DNA of 64,000 nt from an uncultured Bacilli bacterium (GCA_947629655.1 CANREL010000005.1:24790-88789); one strand, 5' to 3'. Shown: positions 10,814-23,147, counted from the first letter of the stretch. The notes: generated from the letters alone by a model not told the origin. Numbers and translations: made by a program.

Positions 10814-12073
10814 TTATTTTTTTATCAAATGTCTTATCTTTTTACCAATATTATATATGTTATACATGAAGCCTGTCTTTATTTCAAATTGGCCGACTAA
10901 CTCAACGACATTACCATTGAATCCTTTTTTGAATTCATACATGCCATAATATTTGTCATTCTTATCAAAGCATCCCGTTATACCGTAGAAATCAACCCAT
11001 TCAAAGCCCATCTCATAAGCATCTTTGATGTGTTCATTATACATAGCATATTTAGGTGTAAAACTTTTATATTCTGAAAGCATTCCACTGTTTAAAGTTA
11101 GATATTCATTACCAGATTTTAGTGATAATAATGCTCCTATATCTTTACCATTAGGGTTCTCTTCTTTAAACTTTTTAGCTTTTTCTAATTCTTCACGATA
11201 CTTTTCTATCAACTTATCAGATGTCTCTTTTTGATTAGTAAGTTTACTTCCAACAATACTAGTCTTCATCTTTTCTTCAATCTTTTTATTATTTTCAAGT
11301 TCATTATCTAAAAGACTTTTAGTATCTTCAAGATAAGTATCAGGATCGAGATATGCGATATATATAGTCATTAAATCTTTCATGTGATGATACATCTTTT
11401 TATAATAATCGAGACTTCGCGTATGAAAGTCTTTTCTCTCACCAGTCGATTCAAAAATTTCGGCCATGGAATCAAGATCTTTAATATTACCTTTTCTAAC
11501 CTTTAATCCCTTCTTATAACAAGCATCGATATTTTTACGCGTACTCTTTGAAAATTTGGCTTTTTTCTCCTCATATGGCTCATCAAGTTTTAGACGATAT
11601 TCCCAACGCACTTGATAAGTTTCAACATATAAATTGAATCCGAAGTATTTATAACCGAGTTTTTTCAAATTATCCATGATCGTGTCATTACGATCTTTAT
11701 CATCATCTAATATCTCCCCTTCACTAGATCTGATGCGATAGATGACATTGGGATCAATCGTGATTCGAAATCCTTTGCGTTCTTGAACATATTTGATCAG
11801 TTCATCAGAGAAAAATTTTAACAATTCAAAATCGTCATAATCAACTAAGTACCCACGTGGAGCATAAAAAGTTTTATATCCAAAAATTGATTTCTCTTCG
11901 AGAATGATCGTTGCCGCTACAACTTTGTTTTTCTTTTTGACACCAACGATATGAGGTATATCTCCAAGTTCCCTTTTTAGATTGGCAAGTTCAATGGTTT
12001 GCATGAAAGAACTTTGAGGGTAATCTTTAATAAATTTTCTAAATTCTTCTTCAGTTAGAGTTGTAAATTTCAT
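10814..12073 (-). CDS. FemABX-family aminoacyltransferase (paralog 3)
   Basis: 419 aa with the same family motifs (FYAPRGY, coiled-coil insert, EFKKGFNG). Its start overlaps the stop of the upstream murJ-like gene. Confidence 0.85.
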   Translation of the reverse strand: MKFTTLTEEEFRKFIKDYPQSSFMQTIELANLKRELGDIPHIVGVKKKNKVVAATIILEEKSIFGYKTFYAPRGYLVDYDDFELLKFFSDELIKYVQERKGFRITIDPNVIYRIRSSEGEILDDDKDRNDTIMDNLKKLGYKYFGFNLYVETYQVRWEYRLKLDEPYEEKKAKFSKSTRKNIDACYKKGLKVRKGNIKDLDSMAEIFESTGERKDFHTRSLDYYKKMYHHMKDLMTIYIAYLDPDTYLEDTKSLLDNELENNKKIEEKMKTSIVGSKLTNQKETSDKLIEKYREELEKAKKFKEENPNGKDIGALLSLKSGNEYLTLNSGMLSEYKSFTPKYAMYNEHIKDAYEMGFEWVDFYGITGCFDKNDKYYGMYEFKKGFNGNVVELVGQFEIKTGFMYNIYNIGKKIRHLIKK

Positions 12074-13731
12074 TAGTTTCTTCCTCTCTTCTTCAATTTT
12101 TCTAGCATATTTAAAATTGTATCACGTCCAAATATTTTAAATATTGTTCCCCTTTTGATTGTTATTCCTAGATATATTATACCACCAATAACAGTATCCA
12201 TGATTATAATTAATATATTTATCAATCGATTAGTCGTCGTAATCGGCATTAATATTTTGATGAGTAATAATACAATACTCATGATTATGACCGCAAAAAC
12301 AACTTCTAATAGACGTTTTATCGTCTCTTCATAATCAACTCGATATTTTTTATTTAGGAATACTAAGCAGATTAGAGCACAAGCGAGATAACCGATGATG
12401 GTAGCAATTATCGAACCGTAGTAAGCTGGTAATCCCATTTTACTAAATCCATATAATAGAGGTATATTTAATCCAAGTTTAGCGATAAATCCTACTATTA
12501 AAGAGATGAAGACCATTTTATAATTTTTTAATACTTGAACAGTTGTAATACTTGTCGTGAAAAGAATAGTAGCGACTGCGACAAAGACATATAAAGCATA
12601 AACTTTAGGTCCATAGTCACTAGCACCATAGAAGACATTCCATACATTAGTTGATAAAATGCTCAAACCAACAGCCATGGGAATGGTCAAATAAATAATT
12701 ATTTGAAGAGCTTGATTAATTTTTTGACGGACACTGGATAGATCATTTTTGACCATACTACTAGTTATATTGGGAATAAAACTTATCATTATTCCTGTTG
12801 AAATAGAAATGATTATCTGGTTTATTTTAAGACCCCAAGTCGATATGACACCCATGACGGTTTCCGCACTATCTTTACTAAAGTTGAAAACATTGGTTAA
12901 AAATTGCACTAAAATGAAGACATCGATAGAATTGTATAACGATTTAAAGACATCAATCATGATGAAAGGAAAAGCATATCCTAGCAATTTATAGATGATT
13001 TCTTTATCAGTTACTTTAGGTTCTTTGACATTATCTTTTTTCTTTGCGAATACTTTTCTATTTTTAACTTTGACAATGCGCAAATATAGATATGAAAATA
13101 AAGCACCTACAGTTGCGGCAAAAACAGCTATACCAACTGTGTTCCTTAGGGATAAATTGAATATTTTCATACCGATAAAACTTCCAATAATTATCATTAA
13201 TACTCTTATGAGTTGTTCTAATACTTGGGATATGGAAGTCGGTTTGATGATATTATGTCCTTGAAAATAACCGCGATAAACACTCATAGTTGGAACAATT
13301 AAAATAGCAAAGGAAATAATTCTTATGACGAATTCAACATCCGCTACAGAGTTACCACCAGGGGTATCACCAATTATCATCTCGGCAAGAGGATGAGCAA
13401 AGATCATGAAGAGAACAAAGAAAATAAGACCCATGATACCTAGTAGTTTTTTTCCTAAATAGAAGGCTCTTTCTTTTATCTCTAAATAACCCAAAGTAGC
13501 ATATTCACTTATCAATTTGCTCATAGCTAGTGGAATACCAGCTGTGGAAAGTCCTAAAAAGATTGAATAAATACTATAGGCATAACCATATAAAGCTCCA
13601 CCTTGATCACCGATTATGGCGTAGAATGGAATGACGTAAAGCATGCCAATAATCTTGCATAAAACAATTCCAAAAGTTGCGATAAAAGCTCCCTGAAGGA
13701 AGCTATTCTTTTTCAAACTTCTCTTTTTCAT
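12073..13731 (-). CDS. murJ: MOP-superfamily lipid II flippase, YtgP/MurJ-type
   Basis: 552 aa polytopic membrane protein. Long blocks recalled from B. subtilis YtgP match (IGMLYVIPF...GGALYGY...LAMSKLISEY; VIRIISFAILIVPTMSVYRGYFQGH). The gene is co-operonic with a fem gene. Confidence 0.75.
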   Translation of the reverse strand: MKKRSLKKNSFLQGAFIATFGIVLCKIIGMLYVIPFYAIIGDQGGALYGYAYSIYSIFLGLSTAGIPLAMSKLISEYATLGYLEIKERAFYLGKKLLGIMGLIFFVLFMIFAHPLAEMIIGDTPGGNSVADVEFVIRIISFAILIVPTMSVYRGYFQGHNIIKPTSISQVLEQLIRVLMIIIGSFIGMKIFNLSLRNTVGIAVFAATVGALFSYLYLRIVKVKNRKVFAKKKDNVKEPKVTDKEIIYKLLGYAFPFIMIDVFKSLYNSIDVFILVQFLTNVFNFSKDSAETVMGVISTWGLKINQIIISISTGIMISFIPNITSSMVKNDLSSVRQKINQALQIIIYLTIPMAVGLSILSTNVWNVFYGASDYGPKVYALYVFVAVATILFTTSITTVQVLKNYKMVFISLIVGFIAKLGLNIPLLYGFSKMGLPAYYGSIIATIIGYLACALICLVFLNKKYRVDYEETIKRLLEVVFAVIIMSIVLLLIKILMPITTTNRLINILIIIMDTVIGGIIYLGITIKRGTIFKIFGRDTILNMLEKLKKRGRN

Positions 13732-13793: not shown

Positions 13794-13821
13794 CAAAAAA
13801 AGATACAACAATGTTGTATCT
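13794..13821 (-). terminator. rho-independent terminator closing the four-gene minus-strand operon
   Basis: Perfect 9-10 bp inverted repeat AGATACAACA/TGTTGTATCT, followed (minus-strand sense) by a T-run. Confidence 0.55.
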
Positions 13822-14710
13822 AATGTCTAGATTTTATCTTTTTAATCTTTTGAATATCAAATTCTTGTTGTAAATCGAGACTCTCAATGAGTGAAATGGT
13901 ATCATCATAGATATTATCACCTTTTATTCCCATTTCAGAAGGAAAGGATATGACTAAATCTTGTGATGAGACGTTGAAAAACTTTCTTATTTGTTTTACG
14001 TTAGCAGCTCGACCATAACCACTCATCCAATAACTGTTAGTAACAGGAGCACTTTCTAAAACGCGAAAGAAATTGCGACGTAAGAATTCTTTTCCTTTAA
14101 TTGGGAAATAACACTTTTGAACATCGAGAAACAAATCACCAGGCTTTTTTAAATTAAGTTCAATATTTACAATTTCATCATCACAACTAGATAGTTCAAA
14201 AGCTCTAAAATTTACTAAGTCGCCTTTCGCTTCAAAAGCTTGGACGATGTAGAGAGTTGCCAAACCACGATTCACTATTTCTGATGTTGACGTGTAAGCT
14301 GGATAACCTAAATTGAAATAAATGTTGCGAACTGTTGACTTATTATCGCGATCATACTTTAACATGCAATCGGGAACACCCATGGCAACTAGTGGAGCTA
14401 GGGGAATACCGCCATATAGTGATCGCACCAATTTACGATTATCAGATATCTCACGACTAGCCTGTTGTAATTCGTTATTTGCCTCTAAAAAGTTTTCAAA
14501 GCCCTCATTGTATCCATCAATGCAATAGGCAATGGCTTTTTCTAATGGTTCACCATAAAAATCATAGTCATCATTTAGACTGGCTTGCTTCATAAAAACA
14601 TCACGATTGACTTTGGGATTACTCTGTAAATAGTCATGAAGATCGGTCAAATTAGCAAATCTTATATTGTAGATGGTATTATCATTTCTCTTAAATATTT
14701 CTTGTCTCAT
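13820..14710 (-). CDS. hypothetical protein (operon gene 4 of 4)
   Basis: 296 aa with no recognisable motif. Its start is coupled to the upstream AAA gene (overlapping ATGA). Confidence 0.5.
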   Translation of the reverse strand: MRQEIFKRNDNTIYNIRFANLTDLHDYLQSNPKVNRDVFMKQASLNDDYDFYGEPLEKAIAYCIDGYNEGFENFLEANNELQQASREISDNRKLVRSLYGGIPLAPLVAMGVPDCMLKYDRDNKSTVRNIYFNLGYPAYTSTSEIVNRGLATLYIVQAFEAKGDLVNFRAFELSSCDDEIVNIELNLKKPGDLFLDVQKCYFPIKGKEFLRRNFFRVLESAPVTNSYWMSGYGRAANVKQIRKFFNVSSQDLVISFPSEMGIKGDNIYDDTISLIESLDLQQEFDIQKIKKIKSRH

Positions 14711-16887
14711 CAGTTATTTTCTTTCTTGGCAGCTAATGATTGATTGAATATCTTTAACAATTTTTTACCACCACTAGTAAATTCATCTTCATCATCTAAA
14801 TCACTCATTTTTTGAGCTATTTTACTCAAATAATCTTGATCTTTAGTCTCTACTATTTCATATGACATGATTTGAGAATTATCAAAGCACTTATCATCTA
14901 AATATATTCTGACAGTCTCAGCATCTCTAGTCGTAAAAGTACCCATGCTATTGACTTCTTCGCCACTATCACCAGGTATCTGTTCAATAGCCTTTCTAAA
15001 GTTAATGGCAAAGTTATACCAATCTGGATAATCTTTTAAAATGCGCATTTCGATGCGATTGTCATAATTAACTTCGATTGGCGTCATGCGTTGCATTACT
15101 GATTCATCCATTTTTTGACGAGTGTTATAAGCAAGTGTTCGACCATTTCCTTTGGTATTACCGGCTGCAATAATTCTGAAATTGGGATGCCTAGATATGT
15201 TTATACCATCTGGAAAAGTATAGCTCTTATTGTTATTACCCATGAAACGATTAAGAACGATAGTAGCATTAGCGATACCATTATCAAGTTCATCTAAAAA
15301 GATCATGTCGCCATATTTATAACATCTATAAAAATTGCTTGGAACGTAAGAACCCGTTGCACTATTGGTATAACCTATTATATCTTGTTCATATAGGACA
15401 TAACCATTGGTCAAAACATTCATGCCCAACAATTTAGCTATTTGTTCTTCAATCATGTATGTCTTACCACATCCAGATGGTCCATACATGTATGGCGGTT
15501 TTTGATTTTCAATTATAATTTTTAAGACGTCATCAAATTTCTCATGATAAATAGCACCATTTTCTTCAATGTCTTTTTGTTTTAATTCCATCAATCTAGC
15601 AAAACGTTCAGTAAAAGGAATACGACGATCAAAATAATAATTAACTTTTGCGTCTAAAACTCTTTCGTCGGCGGTTGGAATGATCACATTGGGAACTAAT
15701 ATCTGTTTAGAATTAGAAGCGATTGCTTCAGGGAGAATATCTGAAACAATTCCTGCTTCACTGGCTATTTTTTCAACTTGAGCTAGACGACTCAAAAACT
15801 CTTCATTAGTCTTAGCTTCACTCAAAATTTGACGAACGCCATCATTGTTTTCTACAAATTCTTTCAATTTCTTTAAAGACTCACTAGTAACGTTATTAAC
15901 ACGTCCCAATTCAATAGAAATTCTTTTACCAACGCCATCAGCAATACTTAACAATTCGGTCTTTTTCTTATCAACTTCGCGGTTTATCTCAGCCATCAAA
16001 GAATCTCTTTCATCAATTAATGATGAACGTTGTTGGGATAATAATTCCAAATAACTAGAATTAAAGTCTTTTAAAATCTTGTTAGCTTTTTTCTGCATAC
16101 TAGCCAATTCTTTTATTTTAGCTTGATTTATTTCCGTCTTACTATTAGATGCTTCTTGGCGCAATATCTCAATCTGTTTTTCAGCAGTTTGAATTAGCGT
16201 CTCTAAAACACTACTAGAATTTAAAATAATATCCAATTTACGATCCATCTCGGCTAGTGTCTCAAGATCGATATTATAGACACCATTAGCTTTTTTATCT
16301 TCGTCTAATCGCGCTTTTATTATTTTTTCGACTTCTGATTTATCACCATACTCCAATATTACTGGATCCATCTCTTTAGCTAAATTAATAGCGGAAGATA
16401 GTAGTGCTCTATCATCAACATAATATTGACGTGCCATTGAGACGTAATCAATCATTGCCGAAATATTATCGACATTATCAATATCTTTTAAATTCTCACT
16501 CTGTGTCAAAAATCTAAAGTATTCTAAAACGATTCTCTTATCATCAAAAGAACTAACTATTTTATTAAAGTTATTCTGATTGATGAATATCTTTGGTCGG
16601 TCTAGATACATATCAACCATCGTACGATAAATTCTTTTCTCTTCACTAGGGTTTCTATTTATGCATAATAGAGAAAACATATTAGTGATAAAATTCATAT
16701 GAATGGAAAAATCTATTCCTTGCTTAGCAAATTTCAACAGTATTTCTGATAGTAATTCATCATCTTTAAATTTATCAATATAAGGTTGAAAATCATATCT
16801 AGCCATATCATTTTTATATTCATAATCCATATAGCCGATATCTCTAACAGTTTTTTCAACACTCGTTTTGTTATCAAAAAATCCCAT
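14710..16887 (-). CDS. AAA_5-type (MoxR/CbbQ/NorQ-like) ATPase with ~450-aa coiled-coil N-terminal region
   Basis: Walker A GPSGCGKT, Walker B MIFLDELD, sensor-1-like FRIIAAGNT, and an arginine-finger region DESVMQRM. The N-terminal half is a long predicted coiled-coil. Confidence 0.7.
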   Translation of the reverse strand: MGFFDNKTSVEKTVRDIGYMDYEYKNDMARYDFQPYIDKFKDDELLSEILLKFAKQGIDFSIHMNFITNMFSLLCINRNPSEEKRIYRTMVDMYLDRPKIFINQNNFNKIVSSFDDKRIVLEYFRFLTQSENLKDIDNVDNISAMIDYVSMARQYYVDDRALLSSAINLAKEMDPVILEYGDKSEVEKIIKARLDEDKKANGVYNIDLETLAEMDRKLDIILNSSSVLETLIQTAEKQIEILRQEASNSKTEINQAKIKELASMQKKANKILKDFNSSYLELLSQQRSSLIDERDSLMAEINREVDKKKTELLSIADGVGKRISIELGRVNNVTSESLKKLKEFVENNDGVRQILSEAKTNEEFLSRLAQVEKIASEAGIVSDILPEAIASNSKQILVPNVIIPTADERVLDAKVNYYFDRRIPFTERFARLMELKQKDIEENGAIYHEKFDDVLKIIIENQKPPYMYGPSGCGKTYMIEEQIAKLLGMNVLTNGYVLYEQDIIGYTNSATGSYVPSNFYRCYKYGDMIFLDELDNGIANATIVLNRFMGNNNKSYTFPDGINISRHPNFRIIAAGNTKGNGRTLAYNTRQKMDESVMQRMTPIEVNYDNRIEMRILKDYPDWYNFAINFRKAIEQIPGDSGEEVNSMGTFTTRDAETVRIYLDDKCFDNSQIMSYEIVETKDQDYLSKIAQKMSDLDDEDEFTSGGKKLLKIFNQSLAAKKENN

Positions 16888-18116
16888 TACCTTGCTCCTT
16901 TTCTTTTAGATTTTATGTATTCTTTAACTACTTCTAGAGTAGGTACTTCACGATTGATATCAATTTTATTTTGAACGTTGAAAGGTTTAGTCAAGTCGAG
17001 CTCTTCATCAACTTCGTAAATGTGATAAGTAAAGTTTGTATTGTGCCCATCACTTTTCTTACGTTCCATCAATATACATTTTTTTGTCTCGATTTCCAAC
17101 ACTTTTAACGTTATTTCTTCACTTTCTTGATCTAGCGTAACATTTATTTGATTGTTATATTTGGTAAAACCATTTTTTAGGCGATGTCTTATTACGACTT
17201 TATCATTACTGATATCTACTTGACTACCAGTATTTGTATAGAGAATTTCTTCTTCACCTTCAGAAATTGTTTTCTCATCACTCAGCAAGAAAGATTTGTC
17301 ACTCGTCTTTAAAATGTTACTAGGCATTTCTATTTCACAAAAATCAAAATAGAATTTCAACAAATCGATATCTTCTTCCAATAATGTCTCTACAGTCTCA
17401 TCATAGAAAACAGAAACACCATTAGAGGTAATTTTGCGTTCCACAGCTTTATCTTGGGCATCATAAATGATCGATCCTTTTAGATCATCATTAGCGTCCG
17501 CCCAAGAAATATTTACTTTGCCACCATCACACTCTATTTTTCCATCAATGGGAACGTCGTCTATGACCTTGACTTTAAAAGAAATGCTTCCATCATCACC
17601 TTGAAACAATATTATGGGCAGTTGTTTTTTAACACTACCAATACTGTAGTCAACTACATATTTATGGTTAAAACCAGTTATTTGATCAATTTTTAACACT
17701 TCATATTTCTTAAATAGCATTATGATCATCTGCATTGTCTCTTTCAAATAATTCTCACAATTTTTTATTTCACGATCATTTGTGTTAAACGATGGAAGAC
17801 CACTTTCTTGTTTTCCTTTTACTCGCTCTTCATCCAAGACGGCAAAAGAAGCATCATTTACCAATTTCTTAGTCAAATCTCCTAATAAGATGATTTTCCT
17901 TCTACCTTTTTCACGTTTATAACGATCTAAAATTCTTTTAATAAACTTTTCAAAATGACGATTTTTATAATCTAGAGCCAAAACGCGATTTTTATCATAC
18001 ACAATTTTAGCACCGACATATTTATTAGTCTCATTCTTAAAAATACTGTCAGTTGAAAAGACGTATATCAAATCCAAATTCTTTATTTCGGAAATTTGAA
18101 CTTCAATCAAATCCAT
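16887..18116 (-). CDS. hypothetical protein (operon gene 2 of 4)
   Basis: 409 aa with no recognisable motif. Both ends overlap neighbouring genes by 1 nt (translational coupling). Confidence 0.5.
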   Translation of the reverse strand: MDLIEVQISEIKNLDLIYVFSTDSIFKNETNKYVGAKIVYDKNRVLALDYKNRHFEKFIKRILDRYKREKGRRKIILLGDLTKKLVNDASFAVLDEERVKGKQESGLPSFNTNDREIKNCENYLKETMQMIIMLFKKYEVLKIDQITGFNHKYVVDYSIGSVKKQLPIILFQGDDGSISFKVKVIDDVPIDGKIECDGGKVNISWADANDDLKGSIIYDAQDKAVERKITSNGVSVFYDETVETLLEEDIDLLKFYFDFCEIEMPSNILKTSDKSFLLSDEKTISEGEEEILYTNTGSQVDISNDKVVIRHRLKNGFTKYNNQINVTLDQESEEITLKVLEIETKKCILMERKKSDGHNTNFTYHIYEVDEELDLTKPFNVQNKIDINREVPTLEVVKEYIKSKRKGAR

Positions 18117-19291
18117 TATTTTTTACTACCAATTCGTTTTTGTGGTGGTCTTTTTGTTCCTCTGTTAGATGAGTCCTTTTTCAATAACTCGGCCATTACG
18201 CCATCATCATCAATCAATTGTAATAATTCAGTTTGATATGTCTCAAGAGAAGAATTTAAATCCAATAGAGTTTGACGATCTTTTTCGATTTGTTCTTGTC
18301 TTTTAGCACGTCCCTCTTTATAAATGGCAATTCCTTTTTTTAAGGAAGCATCTAAAACGGATAAAGTACTGGCACTGACACCTTTATTCAAACTCAATTC
18401 AACTGCCCCTTCAGCATTTTGTTCCAATTCTCTAGCATTGTTGACAATAGCCGTATTAGTGGCTTCGTTTAGACGAGCCATCGTCTTGATTCTATTCTCT
18501 TGTTGACGATTAAAGACCATTACACTACCTTGAGCTTTTAAAATTGGAGCACTATCTCTAAGATAAGAATCACTATTCATAACTAATTCCATATCTGTTC
18601 TCTGTTGCAATCTATAACTTTGAATTTGTTCTTTGTACAAAACTAACGCTTTTTCTAGTTCATTCAATTTACCATTAAATACTTCTGATAATTGCGTTTT
18701 ATATTGAATTTCATATTCTGTATCCATGTTAGGTGGCAATTCTTTCAATTTAGCAATGGTCTCATCATAAGTAGCTTTATCAATTTGACCAACTTTAATC
18801 ATTTCTTCTAACTGTTCAATTAATGGCATCAATTCTTTTATGATTGAATCACGCAATTGGATGTCATTTAGAGAACCTTGTTTTTGTGATTCAACAGCAA
18901 CACAAACTTCTTCAATTCCACGACAATACTCTTGATAACGTCCTTTGTATGTCGTCTCTTCTTCCTCTTCTTTTTTTCCAGTTATAGAACTCAATATTCC
19001 TTTAAATTTTTTTACGACAACAGGAAGTTTTTCCTCTTTCTCTTTCTTTCGTTCACTCTCATCCAAACTCTCATCGAATGATGTAATTGCGGAAATCATA
19101 TTTTCATCAACTTGAACTTCTTGACTATCGACAGCCATTTGAGCAGTCGTATCAAGTATTCGACCAATTTCATCTTTTACGTCTTCACAATAACTTAGTA
19201 TTGTAGCTGGTTGATCAAAATCAACTCTTTGAAATTTACAATCAACGATTTGACCATTCTCACCATAAACTACTAATTCTTTCTTTTCCAT
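18116..19291 (-). CDS. coiled-coil protein, possibly TelA/KlaA-like (toxic-anion-resistance family)
   Basis: 391 aa, predominantly coiled-coil, with size and composition like TelA/YceH. Assignment by resemblance only. Confidence 0.4.
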   Translation of the reverse strand: MEKKELVVYGENGQIVDCKFQRVDFDQPATILSYCEDVKDEIGRILDTTAQMAVDSQEVQVDENMISAITSFDESLDESERKKEKEEKLPVVVKKFKGILSSITGKKEEEEETTYKGRYQEYCRGIEEVCVAVESQKQGSLNDIQLRDSIIKELMPLIEQLEEMIKVGQIDKATYDETIAKLKELPPNMDTEYEIQYKTQLSEVFNGKLNELEKALVLYKEQIQSYRLQQRTDMELVMNSDSYLRDSAPILKAQGSVMVFNRQQENRIKTMARLNEATNTAIVNNARELEQNAEGAVELSLNKGVSASTLSVLDASLKKGIAIYKEGRAKRQEQIEKDRQTLLDLNSSLETYQTELLQLIDDDGVMAELLKKDSSNRGTKRPPQKRIGSKK

Positions 19292-19457
19292 AAAATATAT
19301 TCTCCTCCTATTTTAGGGCTTAAAAAAGACTTTTATAGATGGAATATTTCTATTAAAAGTCTCGTTCAAATCAATAGTAATCATTTAGTTATTAAATACA
19401 ATATTTATCAACCATATCAATTCACTTATCTTTTTGAACTGATACCCCCTACTTCTT

Positions 19458-19473
19458 AATATGTTAACATATT
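19458..19473. promoter_or_regulatory. perfect 16-bp palindrome AATATGTTAACATATT in the divergent intergenic region (candidate operator)
   Basis: Seen directly in sequence, ~110 bp upstream of the phosphoketolase start and in the 5' region of the four-gene operon. Confidence 0.35.
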
Positions 19474-21946: not shown

Positions 21947-21975
21947 AAGATATGGTTAAACCATATCTTTTTTAG
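21947..21975. terminator. bidirectional terminator hairpin
   Basis: AAAAGATATGGTT-AAA-CCATATCTTTT. Confidence 0.6.
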
Positions 21976-23147
21976 TTATCAACATTTTCATAATCATCAA
22001 CTATTTCGATGACGATGATAATTTTATTAGTGATGTGATCATCACTATTTTCTAATGTGAATACATATATTCCCGTTTCATCTAAATACTTGGTTATATC
22101 TTCTACATATTTACCATCATAAACTTTTTTACCAGTGTTCAATAAATCTGTAATACTATCATACTTATAATCACTATTTATGAAAGAAATTTCCATATCA
22201 GTTGGAGCTAGTTTTTTCTCTTTGATCGTGTTCATATTTAGATGGGAACACTTAGTTTTAACATTTTTATCTTTGGTATCAGTACAGATGTATTCTTTAA
22301 AGATGAAAGAGTACTCTTCACTCTTAGGAAGATCTACTTTTATGTCATCTAAATTCACTAATGTAACTTCTGAACTATCATTTTGACCTCTCAGTGTTAA
22401 AATGACTGGTATTACTACTCTTTCATATTTTTGATCATAATACAAAGTGAGTTTTGTATCATTGATCTGCGCTGTAAAATGGTGATATGTTCCACGATTA
22501 AAAGTTTTAAGTTGATCAACTATTTGAAAAAATATTCCTAAAACAGCAATGACAATGATAAAGATGGGAATGGCAATATCTTTTATTTTGTTCATCTTTT
22601 CACGATGAGCATTTTTTACTTCGACTTCCATACTAGGTATTTCGACTTCCATTTCCTTTTTTAAAGGATCATAATCTTTCTTTATTTCATCGACATTTTT
22701 ATAAAATTTATGTCCAGCTCGCTCTGGGTATTTATTAAAGAATTCTTCAACACCATTAGTAGCATCATCAACAGGGATTGGTCTTATGAAGATGAAGACG
22801 ATATAGTGTAGAAACAAATCAACTATCGCCGTTATGATATTCATACTACCAATAAAAATAGCAATGACTAATAAAATATTATTCCATCCTTTAAAATAGG
22901 TTAAAACGCGTTGTTGAAGAACATATTTTTCACGACTTAAAAAGCGCATCAATACGTATAAGAGAATTGTATCAATTAGAATAAAAGTAAGTGGCTGCAG
23001 CAAGAATGTTAAAGATATATCCCAATCTTTTGAATACGATAAAAATGATAAGGCCGTAATAAGGGCAATAACTATTATATATGTCATTATATATATAACT
23101 TTTTTAGTACTCAATTTCATATTTTCACCTACAATAAAATTATACAA
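21972..23147 (-). CDS. hypothetical membrane protein (4 N-terminal TM helices plus a ~200-aa soluble domain)
   Basis: 391 aa. Hydrophobic N-terminal half. No family recognised. Confidence 0.5.
   Translation of the reverse strand: MYNFIVGENMKLSTKKVIYIMTYIIVIALITALSFLSYSKDWDISLTFLLQPLTFILIDTILLYVLMRFLSREKYVLQQRVLTYFKGWNNILLVIAIFIGSMNIITAIVDLFLHYIVFIFIRPIPVDDATNGVEEFFNKYPERAGHKFYKNVDEIKKDYDPLKKEMEVEIPSMEVEVKNAHREKMNKIKDIAIPIFIIVIAVLGIFFQIVDQLKTFNRGTYHHFTAQINDTKLTLYYDQKYERVVIPVILTLRGQNDSSEVTLVNLDDIKVDLPKSEEYSFIFKEYICTDTKDKNVKTKCSHLNMNTIKEKKLAPTDMEISFINSDYKYDSITDLLNTGKKVYDGKYVEDITKYLDETGIYVFTLENSDDHITNKIIIVIEIVDDYENVDN

Follow-up and report, generated by a model that had tools for sequence, protein, structure and literature searches.

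A conserved TelA operon of uncultured Bacilli with an orphan beta-rich protein, a fused CobS/MoxR-type ATPase, a probable VWA-like adaptor and a candidate attenuator leader

Four minus-strand open reading frames (ORFs), named A, B, C and D in this order, follow each other in a 64-kb stretch of DNA from an uncultured Bacilli bacterium (GCA_947629655.1, CANREL010000005.1:24790-88789), the whole of which we refer to as the window. They encode a TelA-family protein, an orphan beta-rich protein, an AAA+ ATPase that is fused to a new helical domain, and a DUF7192 protein that is probably a VWA-like adaptor of the ATPase. The four genes form an operon whose order and tight junctions recur in homologous loci, and a conserved hairpin lies in its leader. 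Its genes and terminator are:

18116-19291, minus strand: gene A, 391 aa, TelA family, acidic, without a transmembrane segment
16887-18116, minus strand: gene B, 409 aa, orphan beta-rich protein
14710-16887, minus strand: gene C, 725 aa, CN domain, linker and AAA_5 module
13820-14710, minus strand: gene D, 296 aa, DUF7192 protein
13794..13821, minus strand: intrinsic terminator of the operon, AGATACAACAttgTTGTATCT followed by T7, with the stem at 13821..13801

The four coordinates are exactly those of the initial annotation, which had also proposed translational coupling. Neighbouring genes indeed have one nucleotide in common at 18116, 16887 and 14710. The junctions had been described as ATGA overlaps: the sharing of a nucleotide at these positions stands, but the coding-strand sequences are TAATG, TAATG and TGATG. 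The terminator attributed to the operon is seen where it had been placed, with its stem and T-run directly 3' of gene D. GC content runs from 0.29 to 0.35 along the operon and equals that of the flanks. All four proteins are acidic and hydrophilic, and none of the four has a transmembrane segment. Genetic code 4 was ruled out, TGA stops yielding proteins of homologue-like lengths.

We fetched about 30 further loci from two rabbit-gut "uncultured Bacilli" metagenome-assembled genomes (MAGs), one NCBI MAG and many gut-metagenome contigs, and scanned them with hidden Markov models (HMMs) built from our own alignments; they are cited below by L numbers. Across the 64-kb window these HMMs match only the four operon genes. 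All complete loci, from about a dozen lineages, have the order TelA-B-C-D, and the junctions overlap or nearly abut, the B/C junction being a one-nucleotide overlap in most. This holds while the identity of B to its window counterpart drops to ~32%, and lower still in L012. One D homologue is labelled Erysipelotrichales.

The TelA-like character proposed for the first gene is borne out by Pfam: gene A matches PF05816 with 5.3e-19 and 68.9 bits against a cut-off of 30, over residues 21-352 and profile positions 6-329 of 332. It also matches phrog_5890, "tellurite resistance" in PHROGs, and the telA genes at the other fetched loci likewise match the TelA family. The TelA profile gave nothing useful against PDB sequences, and the neighbour lists of the fetched loci show no XpaC, KlaA/KlaC or TerB/TerC/TerD beside telA. 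How TelA acts has been a puzzle for decades, although its phenotypes with tellurite, nisin, daptomycin and phages are clear. Listeria telA is LiaR-regulated and adds to resistance against nisin and cell-wall antibiotics, and Firmicute TelA contributes to tellurite tolerance as well (PMC11765107). In Enterococcus faecium, xpaC-telA influences daptomycin binding and phospholipid domains; the xpaC phenotype needs intact TelA, and therefore TelA acts with a modulating operon partner (PMC6811118). The Aravind group has proposed that TelA and a vWA protein build a sub-membrane structure (PMC7824862).

Gene B has no match in Pfam, NCBIfam, PHROGs, PADLOC or the PDB sequences, and a per-member Pfam scan of its family gave no family common to more than two of the 27 members. 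A word-indexed search returned 62 relatives, all without a name; among 1.84 billion cluster representatives, searched exhaustively with an HMM, no more than 117 matched, nearly all of ~400 aa. Phages, viral contigs and viral folds gave no match. The predicted structure, with a predicted local distance difference test (pLDDT) score of 82.5, combines an N-terminal alpha/beta domain, small and highly conserved, with a pair of long antiparallel beta-meander sheets, which are predicted to be amphipathic and weakly similar to barrels. At L016 (1215-8188), B is extended by ~260 aa at its N-terminus, for 606 aa in total. That locus also encodes a 586-aa protein in the place of TelA and a 1006-aa LRR protein downstream; neither the 586-aa protein nor the extension of the fused B found support as a TelA (probabilities 0.1% and 4%).

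Protein C consists of three parts:

16228..16887, minus strand: N-terminal CN domain, ~residues 1-220, helical
15688..16281, minus strand: proline- and glycine-poor linker, ~residues 203-400
14710..15591, minus strand: AAA_5 module and C-terminal helical region, residues 433-725

The MoxR/CbbQ-type AAA_5 core recognised in this gene from the outset is confirmed by Pfam (residues 467-589, 38.3 bits against a cut-off of 22) and by the full set of catalytic motifs: Walker A GPSGCGKT (G469-T476), Walker B FLDE (D532/E533), sensor-1 N577 in AAGNT, and R600 as the arginine of the QRM motif. These are kept in the main clade and in the phage homologue. The strongest match of C is the phage "CobS-like" family phrog_249 (2.7e-31, residues 425-618); TIGR01650 CobS of NCBIfam matches weakly, with 19.1 bits against a cut-off of 558, and weak PDB matches are NorQ, CbbQ and CobS.

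The N-terminus had been described as ~450 aa of coiled coil. We find instead a conserved helical domain of ~220 aa, with the motifs ARQYYVDDRA and EDKKxNG(I/V)Y and without a relative in Pfam or the PDB, followed by the proline- and glycine-poor stretch. In the latter, residues 203-317 are 115 aa without either residue; it varies in length and sequence between lineages and probably forms a coiled-coil stalk. A second TelA at the N-terminus of C was ruled out (hhalign probability 0.5%).

Two loci hold the N-terminal domain by itself. In L010 (2-3243) and L011 (69-2210), TelA and B are followed by a stand-alone 293-aa protein similar to residues 37-219 of C and to nothing else of it (HMM 1e-29, BLASTP 1e-15), then by a HAD protein and uvrB; no ATPase or DUF7192 gene comes after CN there. 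The 293-aa protein of L010 was also considered as a DUF7192 member, which was ruled out in favour of a CN homologue. Since CN occurs as a protein of its own, C is an in-frame fusion of the CN domain, a stalk poor in proline and glycine, and a CobS/MoxR-type AAA+ module. A different variant occurs in L014 (158-4193) and L015 (135-4170), where B and a full-length C are kept, the ATPase motifs of C have decayed (S for the Walker B E, no sensor-1 region, N for R600) and a 188-aa helical protein other than DUF7192 is encoded after C. Gene C is also split into 93 aa and 632 aa in L020 (8173-10325) and intact in the near-identical L021 (8173-10326), and the TelA gene of L028 was called as 271 aa only; both appear to be assembly errors or strain-level pseudogenisation.

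Two of the four proteins had been left without a family. This remains true of B only, as D matches Pfam DUF7192 (6.8e-18) and phrog_1909 (2.3e-21). We modelled D with AlphaFold from 31 homologues, with a confident result (pLDDT 86.9). The folds closest to it are those of NorD, from the NorQ-NorD complex, and of the MIDAS domain of midasin, with modest scores, and in the model D covers just the N-terminal two-thirds of the VWA topology. At the sequence level, Pfam gives DUF7192 and no VWA signal, and PDB sequences give no match even at E = 10. The MIDAS motif DxSxS is absent: strand 127-133 is followed by NLGYPAYTS, and the family has no conserved D or S there. The earlier statement that the ATPase lacks a VWA partner thus stands as regards Pfam and the MIDAS motif; the predicted fold of D, however, comes closest to the VWA/MIDAS partners of MoxR ATPases. 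Because of this predicted fold, and because every complete locus, like the phages, has D beside the ATPase gene, D is probably a diverged, MIDAS-less VWA-like protein acting as an adaptor of the ATPase; we stop short of placing it in the VWA family. Two cysteines of D, at residues 115 and 200 (VPDCM, KCY[FY]P), are invariant or nearly so in bacterial DUF7192; both are Ser in the phage K-type homologue. No paper in the literature searched mentions the name "DUF7192".

Phages carry the second half of the operon. A tblastn search with D returned 239 phage records, 236 of Staphylococcus, two of Mycobacterium and one of Enterococcus; plasmids gave no match for D. Kayvirus A3R (NC_047723; L008 4853-6828) encodes a 372-aa "AAA family ATPase" followed by a D homologue (homologue of phage K ORF14), with 31% identity to residues 433-631 of C (5e-32) and 25% to D. 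The same pair, adjoining a DnaB-like helicase and a Cas4-like exonuclease, lies on an IMG/VR contig (L009 4202-6612). In Kayvirus the pair is among the early genes, near the small membrane proteins MbpR and MbpP; the PHROGs label of the ATPase, 'porphyrin biosynthesis', is probably a misleading transfer from CobS. Viral cobST-like two-gene clusters are widespread (PMC8651126).

With loci that have TelA, B and CN but no ATPase on one side, and phages that have the pair of AAA and DUF7192 genes alone on the other, the operon joins two separable modules, TelA-B-CN and the AAA+ ATPase with its VWA-like partner. The shared order of the C(AAA)-D pair could also mean that the pair was captured from a phage, landed beside telA and is now a domesticated or decaying module without a current host function. 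We regard this as very improbable: intact ORFs, catalytic motifs and one-nucleotide overlaps persist at 30-50% protein identity, the ATPase is fused in frame to a host-type CN domain, and no other phage genes lie nearby.

Upstream of gene A, the window and its relatives have these elements:

19458..19473, minus strand: perfect 16-bp palindrome AATATGTTAACATATT, holding the extended -10 element TGTTAACAT (19469..19461)
19292..19454, minus strand: leader of ~160 nt, with a G-rich 5' motif, a block, a hairpin with T6 and a Shine-Dalgarno sequence
19452..19436, minus strand: G-rich 5' leader motif GTAGGGGGTATCAGTTC, which is GAGGGAGTAGTTCC in the L003 group
19396..19381, minus strand: leader block TTTAATAACTAAATGA
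19322..19367, minus strand: leader hairpin with T-run, candidate attenuator or terminator, GAACGAGACTTTTAATAGA...TCTATAAAAGTCTTTTTT, dG -11.2 kcal/mol
19309..19302, minus strand: Shine-Dalgarno sequence AGGAGGAG
L003, L004 6625-6808: promoter, leader and hairpin
L018 3590-3773: promoter, leader and hairpin
L020 5595-5778: promoter, leader and hairpin
L022 4548-4708: promoter, leader and hairpin
L001 7450-7563: promoter, leader and hairpin
L002 7458-7598: promoter, leader and hairpin
L025 ~1590-1826: promoter, leader and hairpin

The perfect 16-bp palindrome had already been reported upstream of the operon, and we find it at 19458-19473. Five perfect palindromes of at least 16 bp occur in the 64 kb, and ~0.02 would be expected in the spacer of ~290 nt. 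A TGnTAnnAT element stands at the same relative position upstream of telA in L001-L004, L018, L020, L022 and L023, and the palindrome is best read as part of the extended -10 element of a putative operon promoter. As to an operator, no inverted repeat of fixed spacing is conserved in the other loci.

The leader measures ~110-170 nt across loci. Its hairpin is present in nine of nine unique leaders from seven lineages, with 13 pairs, five of which show compensatory changes, and the stem is conserved in sequence as well (GACTTTT/AAAAGTC). The window and L003, whose TelA proteins are only 37% identical, have the 22-mer GAACGAGACTTTTAATAGAAAT in common except at one position; this 22-mer is unique in the window, with none expected by chance. 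Fourteen loci carry the 12-mer RAGACTTTTAAT, and in 13 of them it is found at the telA leader. A scan of the window and L004 leaders against Rfam 15 came nowhere near any gathering score, and RNAalifold gave no structure common to all leaders upstream of the hairpin. A leader peptide was dropped for want of conserved short ORFs. In L025-L029, ~100 nt ahead of the telA start, there are two tandem hairpins with T-runs and the common stem CAAGACT/AGTCTTG. A third copy of ACAAGACTC stands directly in front of the Shine-Dalgarno sequence, an arrangement that points to alternative base pairing or to a protein-binding site that is repeated.

Conservation of this kind makes the leader a candidate new attenuator or small RNA specific to the operon family. 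Its hairpin would be the attenuator, making expression conditional; we present it as a lead and not as a demonstrated riboswitch.

The chromosomal surroundings differ among lineages. The window has xfp on one side and MurJ-like/FemAB genes on the other; in other lineages the operon lies between nrdDG and either pgm or LPG synthase, or is flanked by tgt and a flippase gene, by CutA, MscL and TsaB, by an ABC sugar transporter with ScpAB, or by rpmF and thrS. Flanking genes of recognisable family are mostly housekeeping (nrdD, pgm, thrS, scpAB, mscL, tgt). Envelope genes (PBP5, LPG synthase, flippase) flank the operon in L003 and L012, and in L022 (10411-13239; B 54% identical) a MurJ-like flippase and FemAB are again downstream. 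Because of this shared neighbourhood at 54% identity, the position of the operon in the window appears to be old and not a recent insertion. An insertion between core genes had been suggested; we see no GC anomaly and no mobility genes, and MurJ-like/FemAB are kept in L022.

Downstream lies a cell-wall cluster (window 10814-13731 onward; L006 5834-11975) with a MurJ-like/Polysacc_synt flippase, three FemAB-family paralogues and a GDPD phosphodiesterase. Beyond xfp, at 21972-23147 on the minus strand, a 391-aa multi-pass membrane protein of no obvious family is encoded; according to the annotation of L005, an ABC_tran+FtsX fusion transporter (848 aa) adjoins it.

A defence module, as first suspected, finds no support in these surroundings: flanking genes of recognisable family are mostly housekeeping genes and not defence islands, recombinases or transposases are near one locus only, 7 kb away, and the GC content is unremarkable. 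PADLOC-DB v2 has no match for A, B or D, and for C two chance-level matches only (E = 0.005 and 0.047). The operon could nonetheless be an anti-phage or conflict system of the MoxR-vWA 'threshold switch' type, in which the AAA+/VWA-like couple keeps an effector (TelA or B, on the membrane) inactive until infection, and then releases or assembles it so that phage entry is blocked or the cell killed. Several predicted conflict systems have a MoxR-vWA couple as their regulatory core (PMC7159879), and a link of TelA/Ter proteins with phage resistance and superinfection exclusion has been drawn (PMC7824862). Phages carry homologues of the C and D modules, as is common for defence and counter-defence genes, the chromosomal place of the operon varies between lineages, and B has long, amphipathic, weakly barrel-like meanders. 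Yet B is hydrophilic and acidic, Pfam finds no VMAP, iSTAND, FtsH or beta-propeller in A, B or the N-terminus of C, and the model of B shows beta-meander sheets and no propeller. To our knowledge, control by a leader attenuator is also unusual for defence systems. Altogether, we consider a conflict system unlikely.

MoxR-VWA couples are better known for another task. MoxR-type AAA+ rings act together with a VWA co-chaperone, which holds on to a client that is then remodelled or set free through ATP hydrolysis, as in NorQD, CbbQO, CobST, RavA-ViaA and midasin (PMC7159879, PMC8651126). By analogy to NorQD, CbbQO, CoxDE and CobST, the operon might encode a client-specific chaperone for the maturation or assembly of a metalloenzyme or a cell-wall synthesis complex, with TelA and B as client adaptors. 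Every MoxR-VWA couple that has been studied well serves the maturation or activation of a defined client (PMC7159879, PMC3893208); NorQ, CbbQ and CobS are the closest sequence matches of C, and MurJ-like and FemAB genes are kept downstream in two lineages. Against this, no candidate client is conserved beside the operon across the lineages examined, the locus neighbourhoods contain no CobN/cobalamin, nor, cbb or cox gene, and C falls far below the CobS cut-off of TIGR01650. The existence of a TelA-B-CN core without the ATPase is hard to fit with a mere adaptor role. Such a chaperone is a distinctly unlikely reading of the locus.

The interpretation that we favour, tentatively and with somewhat less than even confidence, is a conditionally expressed, TelA-centred envelope-stress complex that is remodelled by a tethered MoxR-VWA-like chaperone. 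TelA, B and CN would be its ancestral core, a scaffold at the inner face of the membrane; the complex would be cytoplasmic or membrane-peripheral. In the lineage of the window, the long helical stalk of C would tether a CobS/MoxR-type AAA+ ring to CN. This ring and D, as its MIDAS-less VWA-like adaptor, may then act as MoxR-VWA couples do elsewhere: driven by ATP, the ring would put together, take apart or reset the TelA-B scaffold or its bound client. The one-nucleotide stop/start overlaps would fix the subunit ratios. Transcription would start from the extended -10 promoter and have to pass the conserved leader hairpin and its T-run, and for this reason expression of the operon probably depends on a particular signal. 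The idea of an uncharacterised module linked to stress, with which the initial annotation had started, is supported in this form.

Several observations weigh against the TelA-centred stress complex or parts of it. The window hairpin has two G-C pairs only and was missed by a consensus terminator scan, and L012, L023 and L024 lack a leader hairpin. In L003 and L004 the hairpin is followed by another promoter-like element, so that the element upstream of the latter could there be a separate small RNA. The envelope link is drawn from distant TelA homologues and from weak, variable gene neighbourhoods; the fold of B yields no functional clue, and the operon is not known from any cultured host.

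A bolder version is that the operon represents an unrecognised TelA system, in which the stalk-tethered AAA+ ring with its MIDAS-less adaptor loads or releases a membrane scaffold on demand, under the control of a new kind of riboregulatory leader, responsive to a signal from the envelope or from infection. We hold this to be improbable, though worth stating: if true, this would be the first case of TelA with a motor of its own and a defined switch, and the device might serve abortive infection or entry exclusion.

The operon would hard-wire TelA to three partners at a fixed ratio, including a putative ATP-driven remodeller with a trap-able Walker B site. It offers testable handles on TelA: complex formation, substrate trapping and, through the leader, a candidate inducing signal. 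It also gives DUF7192/phrog_1909 a probable role, that of a diverged VWA-like adaptor of a CobS/MoxR ATPase, and the same would hold for the pair of early genes, as yet uncharacterised, that is conserved among therapeutic Staphylococcus Kayvirus phages. The leader adds a cis-regulatory RNA candidate outside Rfam.

TelA, the CobS/MoxR AAA+ ATPase and the VWA-like adaptor are of known kinds. As far as the searched libraries and papers show, the four-protein combination, the CN domain, the B family, the motor-tethering fusion, DUF7192 as a VWA-like partner and the leader are new; in the literature searched we found no paper that links TelA to an AAA+/MoxR partner and none that describes TelA with an orphan beta-rich protein and an AAA+/VWA-like couple.

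With NorQ-NorD, CbbQ-CbbO, CobS-CobT, RavA-ViaA and midasin, the operon shares an AAA_5 core with its catalytic motifs and the gene order of ATPase, then adaptor. It differs from them in an adaptor without DxSxS MIDAS and without a Pfam VWA signal, in the 430-aa N-terminal extension of C (CN and stalk), found in no solved relative, and in that no known client gene is present. The phage pair of phrog_249 and phrog_1909 is homologous to the AAA part of C and to D, adjacent and in the same order, whereas the phage ATPases, of 372-469 aa, are without the CN domain and most of the stalk and have no TelA or B beside them.

The MoxR-vWA ternary systems of Kaur, Burroughs, Iyer and Aravind (2020; PMC7159879) likewise combine a MoxR-type ATPase, a vWA-like protein and system-specific components in each operon, and a subset of their vWA domains also lacks the MIDAS aspartates. 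Their defining third components and effector domains are absent here, the ATPase is CobS-like and not CoxD-like, and the host is a unicellular gut Firmicute and not a multicellular actinobacterium, cyanobacterium or myxobacterium.

Finally, gene A is a true member of the TelA/KlaB family, which includes the Firmicute xpaC-telA (yaaN) and Listeria lmo1967. Its product is soluble and helical, and like xpaC-telA it is co-transcribed with genes of partner proteins; the phenotypes recorded for Firmicute TelA concern envelope-acting agents. In contrast to xpaC-telA, klaABC and the ter cluster, the operon combines it with an orphan beta-rich protein and an AAA+/VWA-like couple.

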